Source: Flavobacteriaceae bacterium (GTDB lineage: Bacteria > Bacteroidota > Bacteroidia > Flavobacteriales > Flavobacteriaceae). Taken from it: a stretch of DNA of 64,000 bases. The notes under the pieces were generated by a model, which was not told where the DNA came from, searched no databases, and was given only the letters and a program-made list of their open reading frames with translations. The translations under genes were made by a program, and so were the position numbers. How positions within the stretch are numbered: position 1 is the stretch's first letter; every line of letters begins with the position of its first letter. Shown here piece by piece: positions 18,577 to 47,603 of the stretch. The stretch spans positions 740-64,739 of the forward strand of contig JAKITD010000005.1 of NCBI GenBank assembly GCA_021648265.1. Reading direction: 5' to 3'.

Positions 18577-19368
18577 ATGAATAGTTTAGATGCTATTATC
18601 CTTGGTATTATTCAAGGGTTTACTGAGTTTTTACCTGTTTCCTCAAGCGGACATTTAGAAATAGGAAAAGCAATTTTAGGCGATCATTCATTGCCTGAAG
18701 ACAGTATGCTTTTTACAGTAGTGCTTCATTTTGCAACTGCACTAAGTACTATCGTGGTTTTTAGAAAAGATATTTGGGAAATAATTAGAGGCTTATTAAG
18801 TTTTTCTTGGAATGAAGAAACTAAATTTTCAGTAAAAATTATTATTTCAATGATTCCTGCCGTAATTGTCGGGCTATTTTTTGAAGAAAAGTTAGAATCC
18901 TTTTTTGGAGGTAATATTGCTTTTGTAGGCTTTATGCTTTTGATTACGGCAGTATTACTTTGGCTTGCCGATCGTTCTAAAAACACAGGTAAAAAAGTGT
19001 CTAACAGCAACGCATTGGTTATTGGAATCTCTCAAGCAATTGCAATGCTCCCAGGAATCTCGAGAAGCGGCGCCACTATTTCCACTTCCGTTTTATTAGG
19101 AAACGATAAAAGTAAAGCCGCGCGTTTTTCGTTTTTAATGGTCGTTCCGTTAATCTTCGGTAAAATTGCGAAGGACCTTTTAAGCGGCGAATTGTTTTCT
19201 GAATCTATCAATTACACACCTCTAGGATTGGGCTTTATATCGGCATTTGTTTGCGGATTAATTGCTTGTACTTGGATGATTAGTTTGGTTAAAAAAAGCA
19301 AGCTTTCCTATTTTGCTATTTACTGTTTAGTGGTTGGATTGATTGCTATTGGTTTTAGTTTTTATTAA
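18577..19368 (+). CDS. uppP: Undecaprenyl-diphosphate phosphatase
   Basis: QGFTEFLPVSSSGH, PGISRSGAT. Confidence 0.95.
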   Translation: MNSLDAIILGIIQGFTEFLPVSSSGHLEIGKAILGDHSLPEDSMLFTVVLHFATALSTIVVFRKDIWEIIRGLLSFSWNEETKFSVKIIISMIPAVIVGLFFEEKLESFFGGNIAFVGFMLLITAVLLWLADRSKNTGKKVSNSNALVIGISQAIAMLPGISRSGATISTSVLLGNDKSKAARFSFLMVVPLIFGKIAKDLLSGELFSESINYTPLGLGFISAFVCGLIACTWMISLVKKSKLSYFAIYCLVVGLIAIGFSFY

Positions 19369-19384
19369 AATTATAAAGTTATTT

Positions 19385-19422
19385 CACAGAGTCGCACAGA
19401 GAAACACAAAGGTTCACAAAGA
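19385..19422 (+). repeat. Solo four-unit CACA(A/G)AG array
   Basis: cacagagtcg cacagagaaa cacaaaggtt cacaaaga; 10-bp period; same unit as the flanks of the GxxExxY gene. Confidence 0.75.
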
Positions 19423-19441
19423 ATCATTAAATTTCAATATT

Positions 19442-40077: not shown

Positions 40078-40989
40078 ATGAAACTTTTAAAACCTTTATT
40101 GTATTTCTCTCTATTTCAGTATCCACTTACTGAAGAGGAAATTTATACTTTTTCTGAAACCACTTCCAAAGAGCAAATAAACGCATCCTTAGAAAAATTG
40201 GTTAGAGAAAAAGTGATTTTTAAAATTGATGAATTCTATCTTTTTGAAGATGATAAGTCCTTGGTAAAAAGAAGACTTTCTGGAAACCAAATGGCAAAAG
40301 ATATACAAGATAAAGCTGATAAGGTTTCAAAATTTATTTCAAAATTTCCTTATGTGGAAGGAGTTGGAATTTCAGGTTCGCTATCAAAAGGATATTATGA
40401 TGATGATGATGGCGATATCGATTTCTTCATTATTACTTCACCCAAAAGATTGTGGATTGCCAGAACATTTCTCATTCTTTATAAAAAAATATTCTTACTG
40501 AATTCCAAAAAATATTTCTGTGTCAATTACTTTATCAGTACCAATTCATTAGAAATTGAAGAAAAAAATCGTTTCACAGCAACTGAACTTACAACAATGT
40601 TACCAATGTATGGCAACGGAAGTTTTCATGACTTTTACGAACAGAATAAATGGGTAAATTCCTTCTTGCCAAATAAAACTATTGCTGAAGGATTATCAAA
40701 ACTGAATCCTGTTGAAAAACCAATTCTATCTAAAGCTATTGAAGGTGTTTTAGATACTAAATTAGGTGATTGGCTGGATTCATTATTCTTGAAAATCACT
40801 TATAAAAAATGGAAAATAAAGTTTAATAAATTAGAAGACAAACATTTTAATGTAGCTTTAAAATCTACCCAGAATGTTTCCAAACATCATCCTTTAAATT
40901 TTCAAAAAAAAGTAATCGAACGCCTTAACGGGAAGTATGACGAGTTACAAGAAAAACACAATATATATTTAGAAAAAGAGCATGCTTGA
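40078..40989 (+). CDS. Pol-beta-superfamily nucleotidyltransferase-domain protein with N-terminal helical/wHTH-like region
   Basis: GISGSLS...GDIDFFII (GS/DxD motif), FCVNY, C-terminal KHHP. Confidence 0.75.
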   Translation: MKLLKPLLYFSLFQYPLTEEEIYTFSETTSKEQINASLEKLVREKVIFKIDEFYLFEDDKSLVKRRLSGNQMAKDIQDKADKVSKFISKFPYVEGVGISGSLSKGYYDDDDGDIDFFIITSPKRLWIARTFLILYKKIFLLNSKKYFCVNYFISTNSLEIEEKNRFTATELTTMLPMYGNGSFHDFYEQNKWVNSFLPNKTIAEGLSKLNPVEKPILSKAIEGVLDTKLGDWLDSLFLKITYKKWKIKFNKLEDKHFNVALKSTQNVSKHHPLNFQKKVIERLNGKYDELQEKHNIYLEKEHA

Positions 40990-42442
40990 TATTCTTTTTT
41001 CGCATTCGTATTATTACCCATTAGATAAAAAACAATGGGAAAACAAAACGCCTTATCCGCCATTGGGAACCATTTATGCAGCTTCATTAATGCGTAAAAA
41101 CGGATATTCGGTATCCTTATTTGACACCAATTTACGAAGTAGTTCTTTCGAAATTGAAATTGAAATACAAGAACAAAAACCTTCCTTTTTGGTCATTTAT
41201 GATGATGGCTTTAACTACCTCACCAAAATGTGTTTAACAAATATGCGGGAGGCTGCTTTTGAAATGATTTCCATCGGAAAAAAATACAATTGTACGGTCA
41301 TTGTAAATAGCTCAGACAGTACCGATCATTATCAAAAATACTTAGATTCTGGCGCTGATTTTATCATTCTCGGAGAAGGAGAATTGACTTTAAAAGAATT
41401 GGTTTTTAAAATAAAAAACAACGAATCTACAACAGATTTAAAGGGAATTGTTTATAAAAATAATACTGAATTTATCACCACTCCAAAACGAGAAGTTTTA
41501 AGAGATCTGGACGAATTACCAATGCCTGCTTGGGATTTGGTCGATGTTGACGCTTATAAAAAAGTTTGGGCAGAACGCAATAAAAAATTCACGTTGAATA
41601 TGGCAACAACACGAGGTTGTCCATATAAATGTAATTGGTGCGCCAAGCCAATTTATGGGGTTCGGTATAACTCGCATTCACCAGCATATATCACCAAACA
41701 CATTTCCTATTTAAAAGAAAATTATGGCGTTACCAACTTTTGGATGTGTGATGATATTTTTGGGTTGAAACCAAATTGGGTTCAGAATTTTAATTTAGAA
41801 TTGAAAAAAGCTGACTTAACGATTGAGTATATAATTCAAAGTCGGGTAGATTTATTATTAAAAGAAGATACTATTGATGCCTTGGCAGAAAGCGGATTAA
41901 AAGAAGTTTGGGTAGGTGCCGAAAGTGGATCGCAAAAGATTTTGGATGCGATGGATAAAGGAACACAGCTTTCACAAATCTATGATGCCACTCGATTATT
42001 AAAACAAAAAAACATACAAGTTGCCTTTTTTATTCAGTTTGGTTATTTGGGTGAAACCAAAGAAGATATTGCCAAAACTATTTCAATGATAAAAGAACTG
42101 CAACCCGATAATATTGGCATTTCGGTTTCGTATCCTTTACCAGGAACCAAGTTTTACGAAATGGTAAAAGATGATTTTAAAGGAAAAGTAAATTGGACAG
42201 ATTCCGATGATTTGGCGATGATGTTTCAAGGGACATTCAATTCAGAATATTATAAAAAACTACATCGCTATGTCCATAAAGAATATAGAAAGAGTCAAGC
42301 AATAGCTAATTATAAACAGTTTTTTAAGAATCCGTTGTCAATTTCAGGAAGTAAATTACGATTGATGCTTTTGTATTTTTATTATATGCCTAGTTCGATG
42401 ATGGATCGAGTGATTTTGAATAAAATGGAACATAAAACTTAA
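40982..42442 (+). CDS. B12-binding radical SAM enzyme (1)
   Basis: PYPPLGTIYAA cobalamin-binding N-terminus, RGCPYKCNWC, DD.F, GAESGSQ.ILD.M.KG. Confidence 0.92.
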   Translation: MLDILFSHSYYYPLDKKQWENKTPYPPLGTIYAASLMRKNGYSVSLFDTNLRSSSFEIEIEIQEQKPSFLVIYDDGFNYLTKMCLTNMREAAFEMISIGKKYNCTVIVNSSDSTDHYQKYLDSGADFIILGEGELTLKELVFKIKNNESTTDLKGIVYKNNTEFITTPKREVLRDLDELPMPAWDLVDVDAYKKVWAERNKKFTLNMATTRGCPYKCNWCAKPIYGVRYNSHSPAYITKHISYLKENYGVTNFWMCDDIFGLKPNWVQNFNLELKKADLTIEYIIQSRVDLLLKEDTIDALAESGLKEVWVGAESGSQKILDAMDKGTQLSQIYDATRLLKQKNIQVAFFIQFGYLGETKEDIAKTISMIKELQPDNIGISVSYPLPGTKFYEMVKDDFKGKVNWTDSDDLAMMFQGTFNSEYYKKLHRYVHKEYRKSQAIANYKQFFKNPLSISGSKLRLMLLYFYYMPSSMMDRVILNKMEHKT

Positions 42443-42898
42443 CCACAAAGAACACCAAGAAGGCACAAAGAGCACAGAGAATTATGACTGAAAATGAAAT
42501 AGCAAAAAAGGTAATTGGATTAGCAATAGAGGTACATAAAGCACTTGGTCTTGGGTTGTTAGAAAGTGCTTATCAAGAATGCCTATTTTACAAAATTAAA
42601 AAAGAAGGTTTAATAGTAATAAAAGAAAAACCAATGCCTTTGGTTTTTGAAGAAGTGAAACTTGATTGTGGTTATAGAATTGACCTGTTAATAGAAAACA
42701 AGTTAGTCATAGAATTAAAAAGTGTTGAAACTTTAAATGATATTCATATGGCTCAAACTCTTACTTATATGAAATTAGGTAATTATAAGCTTGGATTGCT
42801 AATAAATTTTAATGTAACACTTTTAAAACACGGTATAAAACGAATCATAAATGGCTCTTTGTGAGCTTTGTGAAAAACTCTGTGCCGTTTGTGGTTAA
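42439..42898 (+). mobile_element. GxxExxY nuclease cassette with TTAA ends, 11-bp terminal inverted repeats and inverted CACA(A/G)AG arrays
   Basis: ttaaccacaaa (42439-42449) / tttgtggttaa (42888-42898); four repeat units per side; sits exactly between a stop and a start codon. Confidence 0.65.
42484..42864 (+). CDS. GxxExxY protein (PD-(D/E)XK nuclease fold)
   Basis: GLLESAY, RIDL..VIELKS, AQTLTY, GLLINF. Confidence 0.92.
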   Translation: MTENEIAKKVIGLAIEVHKALGLGLLESAYQECLFYKIKKEGLIVIKEKPMPLVFEEVKLDCGYRIDLLIENKLVIELKSVETLNDIHMAQTLTYMKLGNYKLGLLINFNVTLLKHGIKRIINGSL

Positions 42899-42903
42899 AT
42901 AAT

Positions 42904-43686
42904 ATGTCTGAAAATTTCGATAAACACGCAAATAACTACGATGCTGTTTTTACCTATTCAGAAATAGGAAAAGCACAACGCAGTCGTGTCTATCATTTTC
43001 TAAATAAACACTTACTTTCAGAAAAAAACCTTTCAATTTTAGAGCTTAATTGCGGGACGGGAGAAGATGCTAATTATCTTTCTAAGCTAGGACATACAGT
43101 TTTAGCTACCGATATTTCTTCTGAAATGATAAACGTTGCTAGAGCAAAACACCAACATAAAAACTTGAAGTTTCAAGAATTGGATATTACTAAAATTACT
43201 TCAGAAACTTTTACTGAAAAATTCGATTTGATATTCTCCAACTTTGGAGGTTTTAACTGTTTATCTAAAAATGAGATTGCTAACTTTTTTTCTGTTTCTG
43301 AAAACTTATTAAATCCTTTAGGGAAAATAGCATTGGTAATTATGCCAAAACATTGTTTGTTGGAACAGTTTTACTTTTCCATAAAAGGAGATTTCAAAAA
43401 AGCAAAAAGACGTAACACCAACGAATTTGTGTATGCAAATGTAGAAGGCGTGCAAGTGCCGACTTGGTATTATAATCCGGAAGAATTGGTATCTTTAGCT
43501 TCTAATAATTACAAAACAATAGTAACAAAACCTATTGGGATTGCGATTCCTCCTTCTTATTTGGAGCCTTTTTTTAGAAATAAAAAGTGGTGGTTAAATT
43601 TATTAATTTGGAAAGAAAAATGGTTGTCAAATAGTTTTTGGGCTAAATATGCGGATCATTTTTTGATTATCTTTCAGAAAACATGA
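42904..43686 (+). CDS. Class I SAM-dependent methyltransferase (1)
   Basis: LELNCGTGED, TDIS, FDLIFSNFGGFN; start MSENF at 42904. Confidence 0.88.
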   Translation: MSENFDKHANNYDAVFTYSEIGKAQRSRVYHFLNKHLLSEKNLSILELNCGTGEDANYLSKLGHTVLATDISSEMINVARAKHQHKNLKFQELDITKITSETFTEKFDLIFSNFGGFNCLSKNEIANFFSVSENLLNPLGKIALVIMPKHCLLEQFYFSIKGDFKKAKRRNTNEFVYANVEGVQVPTWYYNPEELVSLASNNYKTIVTKPIGIAIPPSYLEPFFRNKKWWLNLLIWKEKWLSNSFWAKYADHFLIIFQKT

Positions 43687-43787
43687 GTATCCTGCAAGGT
43701 CTTGAATACCTTGTAGGTATAATAAAATATAAAATAATAAAACCTGTAAGGTTTCTAAAACCTATTTCAAAATAAATAAATGAGTAT
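43683..43787. repeat. REP doublet bounded by an 8-bp direct repeat (atgagtat)
   Basis: atgagtat at 43683-43690 and 43780-43787; cctgcaaggt-cttgaat-accttgtagg at 43691-43717; degraded copy at 43741-43763. Confidence 0.75.
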
Positions 43788-45156
43788 AATTTTAACCCAC
43801 GCATATTATTTACACGAAGATCCGTTAGAGGCAAAAATAATGAAGCCTTATGCTCCGCTGGGATTATTATACATTTCGGGATATTTAAACGAGCAAAAAA
43901 TAGTGAACCATTTGTTTGATGCTACTTTTTCAAACCAAGAAAAACAATTGGATTTTATTGCTTCAAAAAAACCAAAAGCAGTTGCTATTTACACCAATTT
44001 GATGACCAAAATAAACGTCATTAAGTTGATTAAAATATTAATTTCTGAAAAAAAATATGGCTTTCCAAAAGTAATTATTGGAGGTCCAGATATTACTTTT
44101 AACCTTGAAAATTATCTAAAAACGGGGGTTCATTATTTAGTGATTGGTGAAGGAGAACAAACAATGACCGAGCTATATAATGCAATTGTTGATACTACTG
44201 AAATATCGGAAGTTTCAGGAATTGCCTATTTAAAAAATGGCGAGGTTGTAAAAACTGCTCCTCGCAAAAAAATAAAAGATTTAAGTACGTTACCTTTACC
44301 TAATCGTGAAGGAATTGCCATCAAAAAATATTTGGAAACCTGGAAAACGCATCACGGAAAAAGTTCGATGACCATTAGTACACAGCGAGGTTGTCCTTAT
44401 ACTTGCAAATGGTGTAGCACGGCAGTTTATGGGCAAAGTTATCGCAGAAGACCTGCAAAATTGGTGGTTGAAGAAATGGCGATGCTTCAAAAAAAATACA
44501 ACCCAGATAGTATTTGGTTTGTGGACGATGTTTTTACGGTGAGCCATAAATGGATTCGGGAATTTCACGAAGAAACACAGCTTCAGAAAGTAAAAATTCC
44601 GTTTGAGTGTATCACGAGAGCCGAACGATTAAATGACGAAATTCTTCAGCTTTTAAAAGAGGCAGGATGTTTTAGAATTTGGATTGGTGCAGAAAGTGGT
44701 TCGCAAAAAATCATCGATAAAATGGATAGACGTGTTGATGTAAATGTGGTAAAAGATGCTATAATTAAAACCAATGCTTTAGGAATTGAAACAGGAACTT
44801 TCATTATGTTAGGCTATCCTGGAGAAGATGAAAATGATATTAACGAAACGATTTCCTATTTAAAAAAGGCAAATCCTACTTATTATACTATTACGATTGC
44901 TTACCCGATTAAAGGAACTTCCTTATATTCGGAAATTGAAAAAGATATTATCGTACAACCTAATTGGGAAACCTCTACCGATCGAGAAATAGATTTTAAG
45001 AGGACTTATTCGAGAAAATATTATGATTATGCGGTACGAAGAGTGGTAAATGAGGTGGAAGCTTATAAATCAAGTTCGATTCCTGAAAAAATAAAACTTA
45101 AAACTAAAAGTATTGTATTCTTCTTATTTATGAAATTTTTTAAAATTGTTTTCTAA
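43780..45156 (+). CDS. B12-binding radical SAM enzyme (2), paralog of 40982
   Basis: PYAPLGLLYIS, GGP, RGCPYTCKWC, FVDDVF, GAESGSQ. Confidence 0.92.
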   Translation: MSIILTHAYYLHEDPLEAKIMKPYAPLGLLYISGYLNEQKIVNHLFDATFSNQEKQLDFIASKKPKAVAIYTNLMTKINVIKLIKILISEKKYGFPKVIIGGPDITFNLENYLKTGVHYLVIGEGEQTMTELYNAIVDTTEISEVSGIAYLKNGEVVKTAPRKKIKDLSTLPLPNREGIAIKKYLETWKTHHGKSSMTISTQRGCPYTCKWCSTAVYGQSYRRRPAKLVVEEMAMLQKKYNPDSIWFVDDVFTVSHKWIREFHEETQLQKVKIPFECITRAERLNDEILQLLKEAGCFRIWIGAESGSQKIIDKMDRRVDVNVVKDAIIKTNALGIETGTFIMLGYPGEDENDINETISYLKKANPTYYTITIAYPIKGTSLYSEIEKDIIVQPNWETSTDREIDFKRTYSRKYYDYAVRRVVNEVEAYKSSSIPEKIKLKTKSIVFFLFMKFFKIVF

Positions 45157-45157
45157 A

Positions 45158-45904
45158 ATGAAACAAAAACCAAACAACATAAATGGAGTTTTGTACTTAA
45201 CAGAAAAGAGAACCTTTTTTTCTGCTAACTATATTTCGGTAAGAGAAAAAGAAGGTAGAATCTTGAGTGACCAAGAAGTTTATAATCTTCCAAACCCTTT
45301 AAAGAGCAATAAAAACTTTAAGGAATGGCAACTCCGAAAAAAGTCAAGTAATCGTTTTGTTTCGTATTTAAAAAACAAAGATAAACCTTTAAATATATTG
45401 GACATTGGTAGCGGAAATGGATGGTTTTCTAACGCCTTAGCTATTATTGAAAAAACAACAGTAGACGCTATAGATATTAATACAGAAGAATTAGAACAAG
45501 CGGCACGGGTTTTTAATAAAGAAAACTTATCTTTTATTTATGTTGATATTTTTGAGTCTTTACCTGCTTTCAAAAACAAATATGACATCATTACATTAAA
45601 TGCAAGTATTCAATATTTCGACAACTTAGAAAAGCTTCTAAAAACTTTAAAATCCTTTTTAAAACCAAATGGAGAAATTCATATATTAGACAGTCCTTTT
45701 TATCAGGATTCGGAAATTGAGGCAGCTAAAAAAAGAACAAAAGATTATTATAAAAAACTAGGTGCTTCGGGTATGGACACCTATTATTTTCATCACTCAG
45801 ATTCTATATTAAAAAAATCAACGATATTATATTCCCCTAAAAGAGGTGTTTTTAAGAAATTATTTTTTTTGAAAGACATTCCGTTTTATTGGGTGAAATT
45901 TTGA
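45158..45904 (+). CDS. Class I SAM-dependent methyltransferase (2)
   Basis: LDIGSGNGW, AIDIN, YDIITLNASIQY; start MKQKP at 45158. Confidence 0.88.
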   Translation: MKQKPNNINGVLYLTEKRTFFSANYISVREKEGRILSDQEVYNLPNPLKSNKNFKEWQLRKKSSNRFVSYLKNKDKPLNILDIGSGNGWFSNALAIIEKTTVDAIDINTEELEQAARVFNKENLSFIYVDIFESLPAFKNKYDIITLNASIQYFDNLEKLLKTLKSFLKPNGEIHILDSPFYQDSEIEAAKKRTKDYYKKLGASGMDTYYFHHSDSILKKSTILYSPKRGVFKKLFFLKDIPFYWVKF

Positions 45905-45917
45905 TTAAAAATAGCCT

Positions 45918-47603
45918 ATGATAAAACTTGCTTTATCCATATTACCTTCTGTAAAAAAAAGAAAATTATTTTCTTTTTTTTACAAGACTATATTTTTAAA
46001 TATTCTAGATTTAATTTCAGTAGCATACCTTATTCCTGCTATAATTCTTCTTTTGGATAAAGAAAAGCTATATGCTATCATCAATAAAATTGGGATTGAT
46101 TCAAGCTATATAAAGGACGAAAACATCAAACTATTTATAGCTTTACTTTTACTATTTTATATTCTAAAAAACTTAATACAGGTTAAATTCAATAAAAACT
46201 TGTTTGACTTTTTATACCAGTTATCAAGTGATATGTCAGAAAAAATAATTCAAAATTTTCTCTCGAAAGATTATCTTTCTTATCAAAAAAAAGAAAAAGG
46301 AAAAATGATAAATATCGTGCTAATGGCAACTAATGATTTTTGTTGTAAATATTTACACGCCTACGTACTTTTATTTTCCGAAGTTTTTATTTTAACTATA
46401 ATCTCTTGTGTTCTTTTTTATTTCTATCCTTTTCTTACTCTTGGCTCTTTGTTGGTGTTAATTTGTTTTAGTGGCTTTATTTATTACAAAAAAAAGTCTG
46501 ACTTTAAACTCATAGATTCTACATTTAAAACCGCTCAATCTTCTACAAACTCAAAATTAATTAATATTTTGGAAGGTTATTTAGAGATAAAAAGTTCACA
46601 AAACGAAAATCATTTTATCGATACTTTTAATACAGATAATAAAAAATTAAATAGGGTTACTTCAAAATTAGTAAGCACTAATTTTAACTATTCAAAATAC
46701 TTAGAATTAACACTAATTATATGCTTGGGTGTTGTCATCTACTTTAATTTGAAATTTCCCCAAAACAATGTATTATTAATTGCAACTCTTGGGGCTTTAG
46801 GCTTTAGGCTTATTCCTTCATTAAGTAAAATATTAACTGCAACTACTAATATAAAAACCCATTCCTATACGATAAAATTACTTCATGACATTCTCAATGA
46901 AACAATACAGAAAAAAACAAATACGATAACACGTTTTTCCTCTGAAATAATAATAGATAAGGTCTCTTTTGAATATCAAAAAAACAATATAATTGTAGAG
47001 GATATTGAATTCTCAATAAAACGAGGTGATTTTTTTGGGATTTCTGGGGTTTCAGGAATTGGAAAGACAACGCTTTTACACCTTATTATAGGATTAATAA
47101 AACCTACTAAAGGACAGATTATTATTGACAATAAACAAATGAAAAACACCAGTTTTCTTTCCTTTATAAAATATGTTCCTCAACAACCCTATCTTTTAAA
47201 TTGTACTTTATTAGAAAACTTAACCATGTATAGTACAGACAAAAATATTGACTATGAGTATTTAAATTATTTATGTAATCGGCTTGATTTAAGCTCTATG
47301 ATTGAAGGACTAAAAGATAATTACAATACCGTAATACAACATGATAGCCTTCGGTTTTCTGGAGGACAGAAACAACGTATTTCTTTAGTTAGAGCATTAT
47401 ATGGAAAACCTGATTTGTTGATTTTAGACGAAGCGACCAATCAACAAAACAAACAATTAGAAATTCAAATTTTCGACTTTTTAAAAGAGCTATCTTCTAA
47501 AAACAAAATGGCTGTTATTGCCGTTTCTCATAACGAATCATTGTCTTCATATTATGATAAATCTTATATTTTAAAAAATAAAAAACTACTATTTATTGTC
47601 TAA
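45918..47603 (+). CDS. ABC exporter (fused TMD-NBD), PglK/MsbA-like
   Basis: N-terminal TM helices, GVSGIGKT, FSGGQKQR, LILDEAT. Confidence 0.88.
   Translation: MIKLALSILPSVKKRKLFSFFYKTIFLNILDLISVAYLIPAIILLLDKEKLYAIINKIGIDSSYIKDENIKLFIALLLLFYILKNLIQVKFNKNLFDFLYQLSSDMSEKIIQNFLSKDYLSYQKKEKGKMINIVLMATNDFCCKYLHAYVLLFSEVFILTIISCVLFYFYPFLTLGSLLVLICFSGFIYYKKKSDFKLIDSTFKTAQSSTNSKLINILEGYLEIKSSQNENHFIDTFNTDNKKLNRVTSKLVSTNFNYSKYLELTLIICLGVVIYFNLKFPQNNVLLIATLGALGFRLIPSLSKILTATTNIKTHSYTIKLLHDILNETIQKKTNTITRFSSEIIIDKVSFEYQKNNIIVEDIEFSIKRGDFFGISGVSGIGKTTLLHLIIGLIKPTKGQIIIDNKQMKNTSFLSFIKYVPQQPYLLNCTLLENLTMYSTDKNIDYEYLNYLCNRLDLSSMIEGLKDNYNTVIQHDSLRFSGGQKQRISLVRALYGKPDLLILDEATNQQNKQLEIQIFDFLKELSSKNKMAVIAVSHNESLSSYYDKSYILKNKKLLFIV

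Follow-up and report, generated by a model that had tools for sequence, protein, structure and literature searches.

A 460-bp unit lies in the window, a 64,000-nucleotide stretch of the Flavobacteriaceae contig JAKITD010000005.1, at the junction between the gene of a B12-binding radical SAM enzyme (rSAM1) and that of an S-adenosylmethionine (SAM)-dependent methyltransferase. It contains a gene for a protein of the GxxExxY family, framed by two inverted arrays of a 7-nt motif, which we refer to as arms. Our analysis suggests, with a probability of about 0.6, that this unit is a resident, anciently inserted 'GxxExxY cassette', that is, the gene of a minimal Cas4/RecB-like PD-(D/E)XK nuclease combined with two arrays that are the cognate repeat sites of this nuclease. 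Comparisons among related genomes indicate that gene and arms arrive jointly at compact, co-directional junctions, and that both operon frames are left intact because the stop-rich ends terminate the upstream gene and the right end abuts the next start codon. At this locus the cassette has since then been passed on vertically under strong purifying selection, and in sister lineages it has decayed to a pseudogene or to gene-less arms. The heptamers may be binding and/or cleavage sites of the encoded nuclease, as conservation is confined to the units and does not include the spacers, and as the motif variants of the two arms co-vary. Spread could have involved the action of the nuclease at the arrays, followed by host repair or recombination, and the substrate may be single-stranded or fold-back DNA. 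We infer both the recognition of the heptamers by the protein and any role of the protein in spread; the logic would be closer to that of the NTS-ssnA-NTS and REP-RAYT modules than to that of a cut-and-paste TTAA transposon.

Organization of the unit

The unit (Table 1) begins and ends in TTAA (42439-42442 and 42895-42898) and has a perfect 11-bp terminal inverted repeat (TTAACCACAAA / TTTGTGGTTAA). The preliminary description of this DNA, which was made from the sequence alone, had reported these ends, the terminal repeat, four inverted units on each side and the placement of the stop codons, and all of these features are present as it described them. It had also given the units a roughly even period of 10 bp, and this needs correction, the spacing of the heptamers in the arms being 9/11/9 bp. 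The inter-unit spacers of the left arm are not complementary to those of the right arm. A double-unit pattern has four matches in the whole window, all of them in these two arms, where 0.05 are expected.

The fit of the unit between its neighbours is close. The stop codon of rSAM1, TAA (42440-42442), is part of the left TTAA, and the last two codons and the stop of this gene are altered relative to its ancestral, overlapping end. The stop codon of the nuclease gene, TGA (42862-42864), is part of the innermost right unit, and the methyltransferase ATG begins 5 nt past the end of the right arm. The reading frame of the nuclease gene is open through the left arm. On the plus strand between the arms there is no second open reading frame (ORF) of at least 40 aa besides the nuclease gene. 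A recombinase gene (DDE, HUH, serine or tyrosine) was found neither between the arms, where the sole ORF is that of the PF13366 protein, nor adjoining them. A scan of the cassette for promoters and terminators gave no signal above chance, and no direct repeat was found outside the arms at the rSAM1/methyltransferase site.

Table 1. The unit, its host genes, the solo array and the other GxxExxY genes of the same genome (G000; window positions unless a contig is named)
Feature	Position	Strand	Description
Left arm	42439..42481	+	TTAACC end, then units CACAAAG (42444-50), CACCAAG (42453-59), CACAAAG (42464-70), CACAGAG (42473-79); arm-model matches E 5.6e-5 (nhmmer), 6.8e-8 (model R1)
GxxExxY gene	42484..42864	+	126 aa; PD-(D/E)XK; profile matches, AlphaFold2 model
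Right arm	42854..42898	-	Four inverted units (complement strand, 42857-63, 42866-72, 42878-84, 42887-93), GGTTAA end; arm-model matches
rSAM1, B12-binding radical SAM enzyme	40982..42442	+	Upstream host gene; profile matches, junction comparison
SAM-dependent methyltransferase	42904..43686	+	Downstream host gene; profile matches, junction comparison
Solo four-unit array	19385..19421	+	CACAGAG x2, CACAAAG x2; between upstream ORF and truB-like gene
GxxExxY gene	C77:6093-6561		Motif CGCAAAG, TTAACC ends
GxxExxY gene	C39:1991-2471		Motif CGCAGAT
GxxExxY gene	C98:25116-25445		Motif ATTAAG
GxxExxY gene	C3:2684-3022		Motif AGGATT

The junction in related genomes

The orthologous junction was compared at 22 loci, from the genus and one neighbouring genus, and at none of them (0/22) is there a GxxExxY gene between rSAM1 and the methyltransferase gene. 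The overlap of the two genes in more distant species, where the methyltransferase ATG is within the end of rSAM1 (e.g. ...CATACAAATGGAAACTAA), shows the compact junction to be ancestral. Closer species have short, gene-less inserts at exactly this junction. In L008, L010 and L013 the right arm is kept before the methyltransferase ATG without the gene (...CTCTGTGGTTAAA(T)AAAATG), in L007 and L009 there is a mini-hairpin of a different motif family (ACCATTAAG), and in L011 and L012 there are fold-backs of the CACAGAT/ACTGAT type. This indicates that the two genes formerly overlapped and that the 460-bp unit was inserted between them later. The preliminary description had likewise proposed an insertion into a compact junction, and the GxxExxY gene is, in agreement with it, not a fixed member of the cluster.

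Relatives of the cassette at the same junction were found outside these loci. Metagenomic contigs (L048-L050) carry an intact cassette, with identities of 90% for the GxxExxY protein, 85% for rSAM1 and 70% for the methyltransferase. In a metagenome-assembled genome (MAG) labelled Dokdonia sp. (L121; rSAM1 79% identical) the arms of the same-junction cassette are intact, and its gene is a pseudogene, interrupted by a frameshift and by an in-frame TAA. For the nuclease gene, comparison of the window with L048 gives a ratio of nonsynonymous to synonymous divergence (dN/dS) of 0.048 at a dS of 0.93, the flanks having a dS of 1.1-2.0. The constraint on the nuclease is ordinary, its dN/dS of 0.05 being comparable to that of rSAM1. 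This divergence and the same-junction relatives show long co-inheritance of the cassette with its neighbours under purifying selection. Judging from the remnants, the cassette has been lost or degraded several times in sister lineages.

Arrays around other GxxExxY genes

The window's genome has five GxxExxY genes, each between inverted flank repeats of its own short motif (Table 1). The four other paralogues are 34-63% identical to the window's protein, and three of these four have a complete upstream fold-back and a third arm downstream. Within the genus, inverted flank repeats are present at most of the 21 GxxExxY copies examined (23 matches), and close proteins have similar motifs. A further set comprised 74 close homologues, all intact and 64-85% identical, from named genomes of the Flavobacteriales, Chitinophagales, Sphingobacteriales, Cytophagales, Marinilabiliales, Saprospirales and other orders. 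At least two C[AG]C.[AG]AG units are present in a flank of 65 of the 74 homologues; of 1460 control windows taken at these loci, 0.5% have them. The canonical layout, with forward units upstream and reverse units downstream, is seen in 33 of the homologues. The expectation in the preliminary description that other GxxExxY genes would have like inverted arrays is thus supported. One copy is arranged differently: L039 (G019 C1, gene 1440766-1441110) has at least nine tandem TTTCACA[G/A]AT downstream, with a period of 10 bp (seven perfect, two with A for G), the run extending to the limit of the sequence examined, and no obvious upstream arm.

The motif variants differ in having A or G at position 2 of the unit, and in this respect the left and right arms of a cassette are correlated (r = 0.92). 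Identity between the arms is 35% in the spacers and 91% at unit positions, the latter value being partly circular because the units are defined by a pattern. Since the units are conserved and the spacers variable, each arm is an array in which one short, conserved site is repeated, and the two are not simple inverted repeats.

These results bear on the simplest alternative, in which the nuclease gene is an ordinary cluster gene of the rSAM/methyltransferase pathway and its flanking repeats are meaningless. The co-directional orientation and tight packing in the cluster would agree with it. It is nevertheless refuted by the four pattern matches where 0.05 are expected, by the junction comparison, in which about 20 related species lack the gene, and by the flank survey of the 74 homologues; the same design is moreover found around homologues in unrelated contexts. 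We consider this alternative to be almost certainly wrong, and the nuclease gene, being outside the pathway, is not to be counted as a cluster member. The host locus (window 40078-47603) is a compact one-strand cluster that combines genes for two B12-binding radical SAM enzymes and two SAM-dependent methyltransferases with those for a nucleotidyltransferase-like protein and an ABC transporter-like protein. Possibly these genes are a small cluster for biosynthesis or modification.

The protein belongs to a very large family (GxxExxY / PDDEXK_3), for which there are at least 8000 candidates, all with E <= 1e-10. The GxxExxY protein is 78-83% identical across orders, while PolA from the same genomes is 52-56% identical; for an acidobacterial MAG the values are 68% and 42%. 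The protein tree is not congruent with taxonomy. The high identity of GxxExxY compared with PolA, together with the ordinary constraint noted above, therefore points to transfer between lineages, and in our analysis the module has by this evidence spread horizontally across orders of Bacteroidota.

The nuclease

The protein matches TIGR04256 ('GxxExxY protein') with 139.5 bits against a cut-off of 35, over profile positions 2-116 of 116, and Pfam PF13366 (PDDEXK_3) with 136.7 bits against a cut-off of 22. The name-giving motif G24-L-L-E27-S-A-Y30 is present in the N-terminal part, and the catalytic residues D67, E77 and K79 are on invariant or near-invariant columns of the 74-sequence alignment. 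The AlphaFold2 model (mean predicted local distance difference test score, pLDDT, 95.5) has two N-terminal helices and a PD-(D/E)XK core. In Foldseek searches of the PDB it gave weak matches (E about 5e-3, TM score 0.46-0.52), the best being LHK-Exo, lambda exonuclease and Cas4 SSO0001, and a sequence search of the PDB found no relative of the protein. Pfam and NCBIfam return only PDDEXK_3 / GxxExxY; there is no GIY-YIG (cd10448) domain, and the Pfam scan shows no HUH Y1 transposase-like domain. The defence library PADLOC and the PHROGs library gave no match for the nuclease.

Solo arms and the question of function

A profile search of the 2.8-Mb genome with the arm gave about 24-27 copies, with the consensus TTTAACC-ACAAAG-nn-CACAAAG-nTTTT-CACAAAG-GT-CACAAAG. 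Only two arm pairs enclose a gene, the rest being solo arms, which are most of the copies, two outward-facing fold-backs (C8:12382-12490 and C61:54147-54241), two back-to-back pairs and one nested arm. At C32:6320-6400 a CACAAAG-type arm is nested in a hairpin of the ATTAAG family (ACCATTAAG). A second family of small palindromic repeats (CCTGCAAGG-loop-CCTTGCAGG type, GATTCCGTGTCAAGCACGGAAT) is found in several species at the intergenic sites that heptamer arms also occupy, as in L008 and L010 (G023, G013) and near 33900 of C97 in the window's genome.

The array at 19385-19421 has four units with an exact 10-bp period and is without the TTAACC end. It is part of an insert of ~70 bp (window 19368-19438) between two genes that in most genus members adjoin or overlap each other. 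Most genus members are without the insert, which is present in one close relative and degenerate in a third. In the closest relative the orthologous array differs at 7 of 28 unit positions, the surrounding DNA being 88% identical, and there is at most a possible direct repeat, ATTAT, at the site. The preliminary description had called this array a solo footprint; the four-unit array is genuine, but no excision is shown, and what is seen is an insert between adjacent genes. By this example, arrays can occupy junctions without a gene.

Related genomes have 8-26 arms each, and in four of them with 12-26 arms (G023, G018, G015, G006) no intact gene of the cognate type was found. About 10 of 17 mappable arm sites are common to G023 and the window's genome, and at several of the unshared sites the other genome bears a fold-back of a different motif family. 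Because the intergenic DNA is too diverged, this pair gave no clean empty sites for arms without a gene. We also considered whether solo arrays take on the variant of the cassette resident in their genome, and rejected this because four genomes have TTAACC-type arms of similar motif composition.

The dispersed arms could also belong to a domesticated, trans-acting system, in which a host-beneficial nuclease acts on dispersed heptamer arrays, for example in single-strand-specific restriction or recombination control, which has been demonstrated for SsnA and its NTS repeats, and the flanking arms only mark its origin or regulate its gene. The strong purifying selection and long vertical inheritance described above are in line with this, as are about 24 dispersed arms for 2 cognate genes, the arm sites common to two species, and the stable same-site inheritance suggested in Aequorivita (shared upstream sequence) and Flavobacterium (one protein clade); there is also a published precedent (PMC11893778). 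The family is however patchy, being found in 11 of 28 genus genomes, it has been pseudogenised and lost repeatedly, it has spread horizontally, and it has no match in the defence library. In G018 and G015 there are 13-15 arms and no GxxExxY gene was detected, the assemblies being incomplete, and the persistence of arms therefore needs no resident gene. We regard this reading as rather unlikely. The cassette may be selfish, domesticated or both: the patchy distribution and repeated decay favour selfishness, and the long-term purifying selection in fixed copies favours function.

A further possibility is that the unit acts as RNA, the arms pairing in the operon transcript to form a long-range stem with the ORF in its loop; processing of this stem, or masking of translation by it, would insulate the host operon. 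RNase III stems around the intervening sequences of 23S rRNA provide an analogy. Pairing of the arms in the mRNA had been suggested in the preliminary description, and the predicted minimum-free-energy fold does pair them end to end (z = -3.4), as is expected of any inverted repeat. The co-directional position in an operon, without promoter or terminator signal above chance, and the co-variation of the motif variant between arms would also fit. The spacers are however non-complementary (35% identity), so that only 7-bp helices would form; each cassette uses one motif for all its units, which is more than pairing alone would demand; most arms in the genome are solo and partnerless; and there is no match to an Rfam family. 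Pairing as such is thus predicted, while the spacers and the many solo arms oppose a pure RNA-stem function, which we consider improbable.

Other compact junctions

The junction between the methionine aminopeptidase gene (map) and a methyltransferase-like gene was surveyed in the genomes of the genus, except that of the window, from whose assembly map is missing. It is empty in 20 genomes, with gaps of about 8-46 nt, mostly <=33 nt, and one TAATG overlap. In three genus members it is filled, twice by a CACAGAG/CGCTGAG cassette and once by a cassette that has CACGAAT arms and a gene from a different GxxExxY clade. Each of these cassettes (L207-L209, in G013, G001 and G005) begins past the same map codon and supplies a new stop, and ~20 nt of the target are replaced, not duplicated. 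The presence of two cassette families at the same position suggests either that the site was hit twice or that one cassette replaced another.

Elsewhere, identical or near-identical homologues are found at nuoK/nuoL, in a type III restriction-modification operon and at DUF1015/yggS. At the first of these and in a type III restriction-modification-like operon, homologues 83-85% identical are seen on metagenome contigs (L163-L172) and in L051 and L153-L162. In the type III locus the GxxExxY gene is between the methylase and helicase-nuclease genes, and the same locus has a second PDDEXK_3 gene.

The left ends of cassettes repeatedly provide the stop codon of the upstream gene. The three junctions studied in the genus are all compact and co-directional, and each has more than one kind of insert or motif family across species, which makes a junction preference plausible from the sites compared. 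The neighbours are co-directional on both sides in 40 of 69 loci, which is not clearly different from ordinary genes. The targeting of operon junctions, proposed in the preliminary description, is thus in accord with all three sites, but selection for read-through expression is an equally good explanation of the compact-junction pattern.

TTAA ends, target site and mobility

The proposal of the preliminary description, that the unit targets operon junctions and may be mobilised by its nuclease, amounts to an active cut-and-paste element that would duplicate TTAA and be excised and inserted by its own PD-(D/E)XK enzyme. This is suggested by the TTAA at both ends with the 11-bp terminal inverted repeat, by the insertion into compact junctions at three sites, and by the nuclease being the only enzyme encoded in the unit. 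The ends, however, have another source: TTTAACC belongs to the consensus of the arm family and is present in solo arms too. The left end of the same-site orthologue is TCTAACC, and rSAM1 there extends to a TAA inside the first unit. The ancestral junction is an ATG..TAA overlap without TTAA, and so does not correspond to the empty site with a single TTAA that had been predicted; the ancestors of the map junction are also without TTAA. No direct repeat flanks the unit, the map site lost ~20 nt of target, and neither recent copies nor an empty allele was found. A TTAA target duplication is not supported by these comparisons, though its strict exclusion would need empty sites from the same species, and we consider the cut-and-paste model highly improbable. 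Present or recent mobility has likewise left no sign in the genomes compared: the arms within the window's genome align with a mean column identity of 78%, the four paralogues are distant from the window's protein, and the copy in the window has diverged along with its flanks.

Several observations weigh against the cassette reading itself. In an exact-pattern scan of metagenome contigs the single-TTAA empty allele had 0 matches; the filled allele of this locus likewise had 0, so that the scan makes no statement on polymorphism within the species. Near-identical copies at different sites were not seen, the proteins P0083 and P0075, each on at least 24 contigs, being in one genomic context each. 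To our knowledge, there is no case of transposition by a 126-aa nuclease alone. Position 23 of the protein (window 42550-42552) is Leu, where at least 90% of the 74 relatives, including the same-site orthologue, have Pro; this may be a first sign of relaxed constraint in the window's copy. Within the close clade of the window's protein, the CAC/CGC variant clusters weakly on the protein tree, with 15 changes against a mean of 20 in shuffles. To these can be added the partial circularity of unit identity and the arms of G018 and G015. As proof of a coevolution of specificity the CAC/CGC state was rejected, since the clustering is weak and many arrays mix both variants.

Implications and comparison with known systems

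In a survey of PD-(D/E)XK proteins, GxxExxY / PDDEXK_3 is listed without an assigned function (PMC3424549), and full-text literature searches (GxxExxY, PDDEXK_3, PF13366, TIGR04256) found no description of its genomic habit. The inverted, phased short-motif arrays that travel with the gene, with a 7-nt unit in this clade, are a concrete candidate for what the enzyme acts on. Should the nuclease indeed read the arms of its own cassette, many natural pairs of protein and sequence specificity would be available in the family, as they are in Ssn for single-stranded DNA; a class of short dispersed repeats of Bacteroidota would then be explained, and with it the odd 'hypothetical' inserts in nuo and restriction-modification operons. 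In its boldest form, which we think doubtful, the proposal is that GxxExxY cassettes are an unrecognised minimal class of selfish DNA, widespread at least in Bacteroidota, whose sole protein, a ~125-aa Cas4/RecB-like nuclease, would read the phased heptamer arrays at its own ends. Such cassettes would settle preferentially in compact or overlapping co-transcribed junctions, where their arms and stop-rich termini would keep the neighbours expressed and the gene would ride on the host operon transcript, the gene-less arms being non-autonomous or decayed derivatives.

The cassette resembles known mobile elements in part. With classical insertion sequences, miniature inverted-repeat transposable elements (MITEs) and piggyBac-type TTAA elements it has in common terminal inverted repeats, sub-terminal repeated units and gene-less derivatives. 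Unlike classical insertion sequences and MITEs it has no DDE, HUH, serine or tyrosine recombinase, no near-identical copies and no demonstrable target-site duplication, and unlike the TTAA of piggyBac-type elements its TTAA is part of the arm consensus and not a duplicated target. Like homing endonuclease genes, it is built on a small nuclease gene that stands alone, is sporadically distributed, has spread horizontally, has repeatedly reached the same host site, and has pseudogene and remnant stages. It differs from them in being outside an intron or intein, in having its own repeat arrays and in the long-term purifying selection on its fixed copy, and no homing-type recognition site was identified in an empty allele. 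With REP/REPIN-RAYT systems it shares a low-copy gene flanked by dispersed extragenic repeats, gene-less intergenic doublets and singlets, a partly domesticated look and vertical inheritance. It has, however, no HUH/Y1 domain, its repeats are phased heptamer arrays and not palindromic REP hairpins, and its arms number about 24, while REPs number hundreds.

The closest published analogue appears to be NTS-ssnA-NTS, in which a GIY-YIG nuclease of the Ssn family is framed by its own repeats and cuts single-stranded DNA at them (Chenal et al. 2025, PMC11893778). The Ssn repeats are dispersed in excess of gene copies, homologues pair with different repeat variants, and the authors remark on an architecture like that of insertion sequences (PMC11893778). 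Both systems have a small single-domain nuclease gene with cognate repeats on both sides and repeats dispersed beyond the gene copies, and in both the repeat variant changes with the homologue. They differ in fold and chemistry, which are PD-(D/E)XK in the cassette and GIY-YIG in Ssn, and in the repeat, which in Ssn is a single hairpin of 20-50 nt (SRM) and in the cassette a phased four-unit array of a 7-nt motif whose spacers are free and which has no hairpin by itself. Single-stranded DNA is a demonstrated substrate for Ssn and a possible one for the cassette. We place the cassette among small nuclease genes that have dispersed cognate repeats on either side, and in none of the known mobile-element families.

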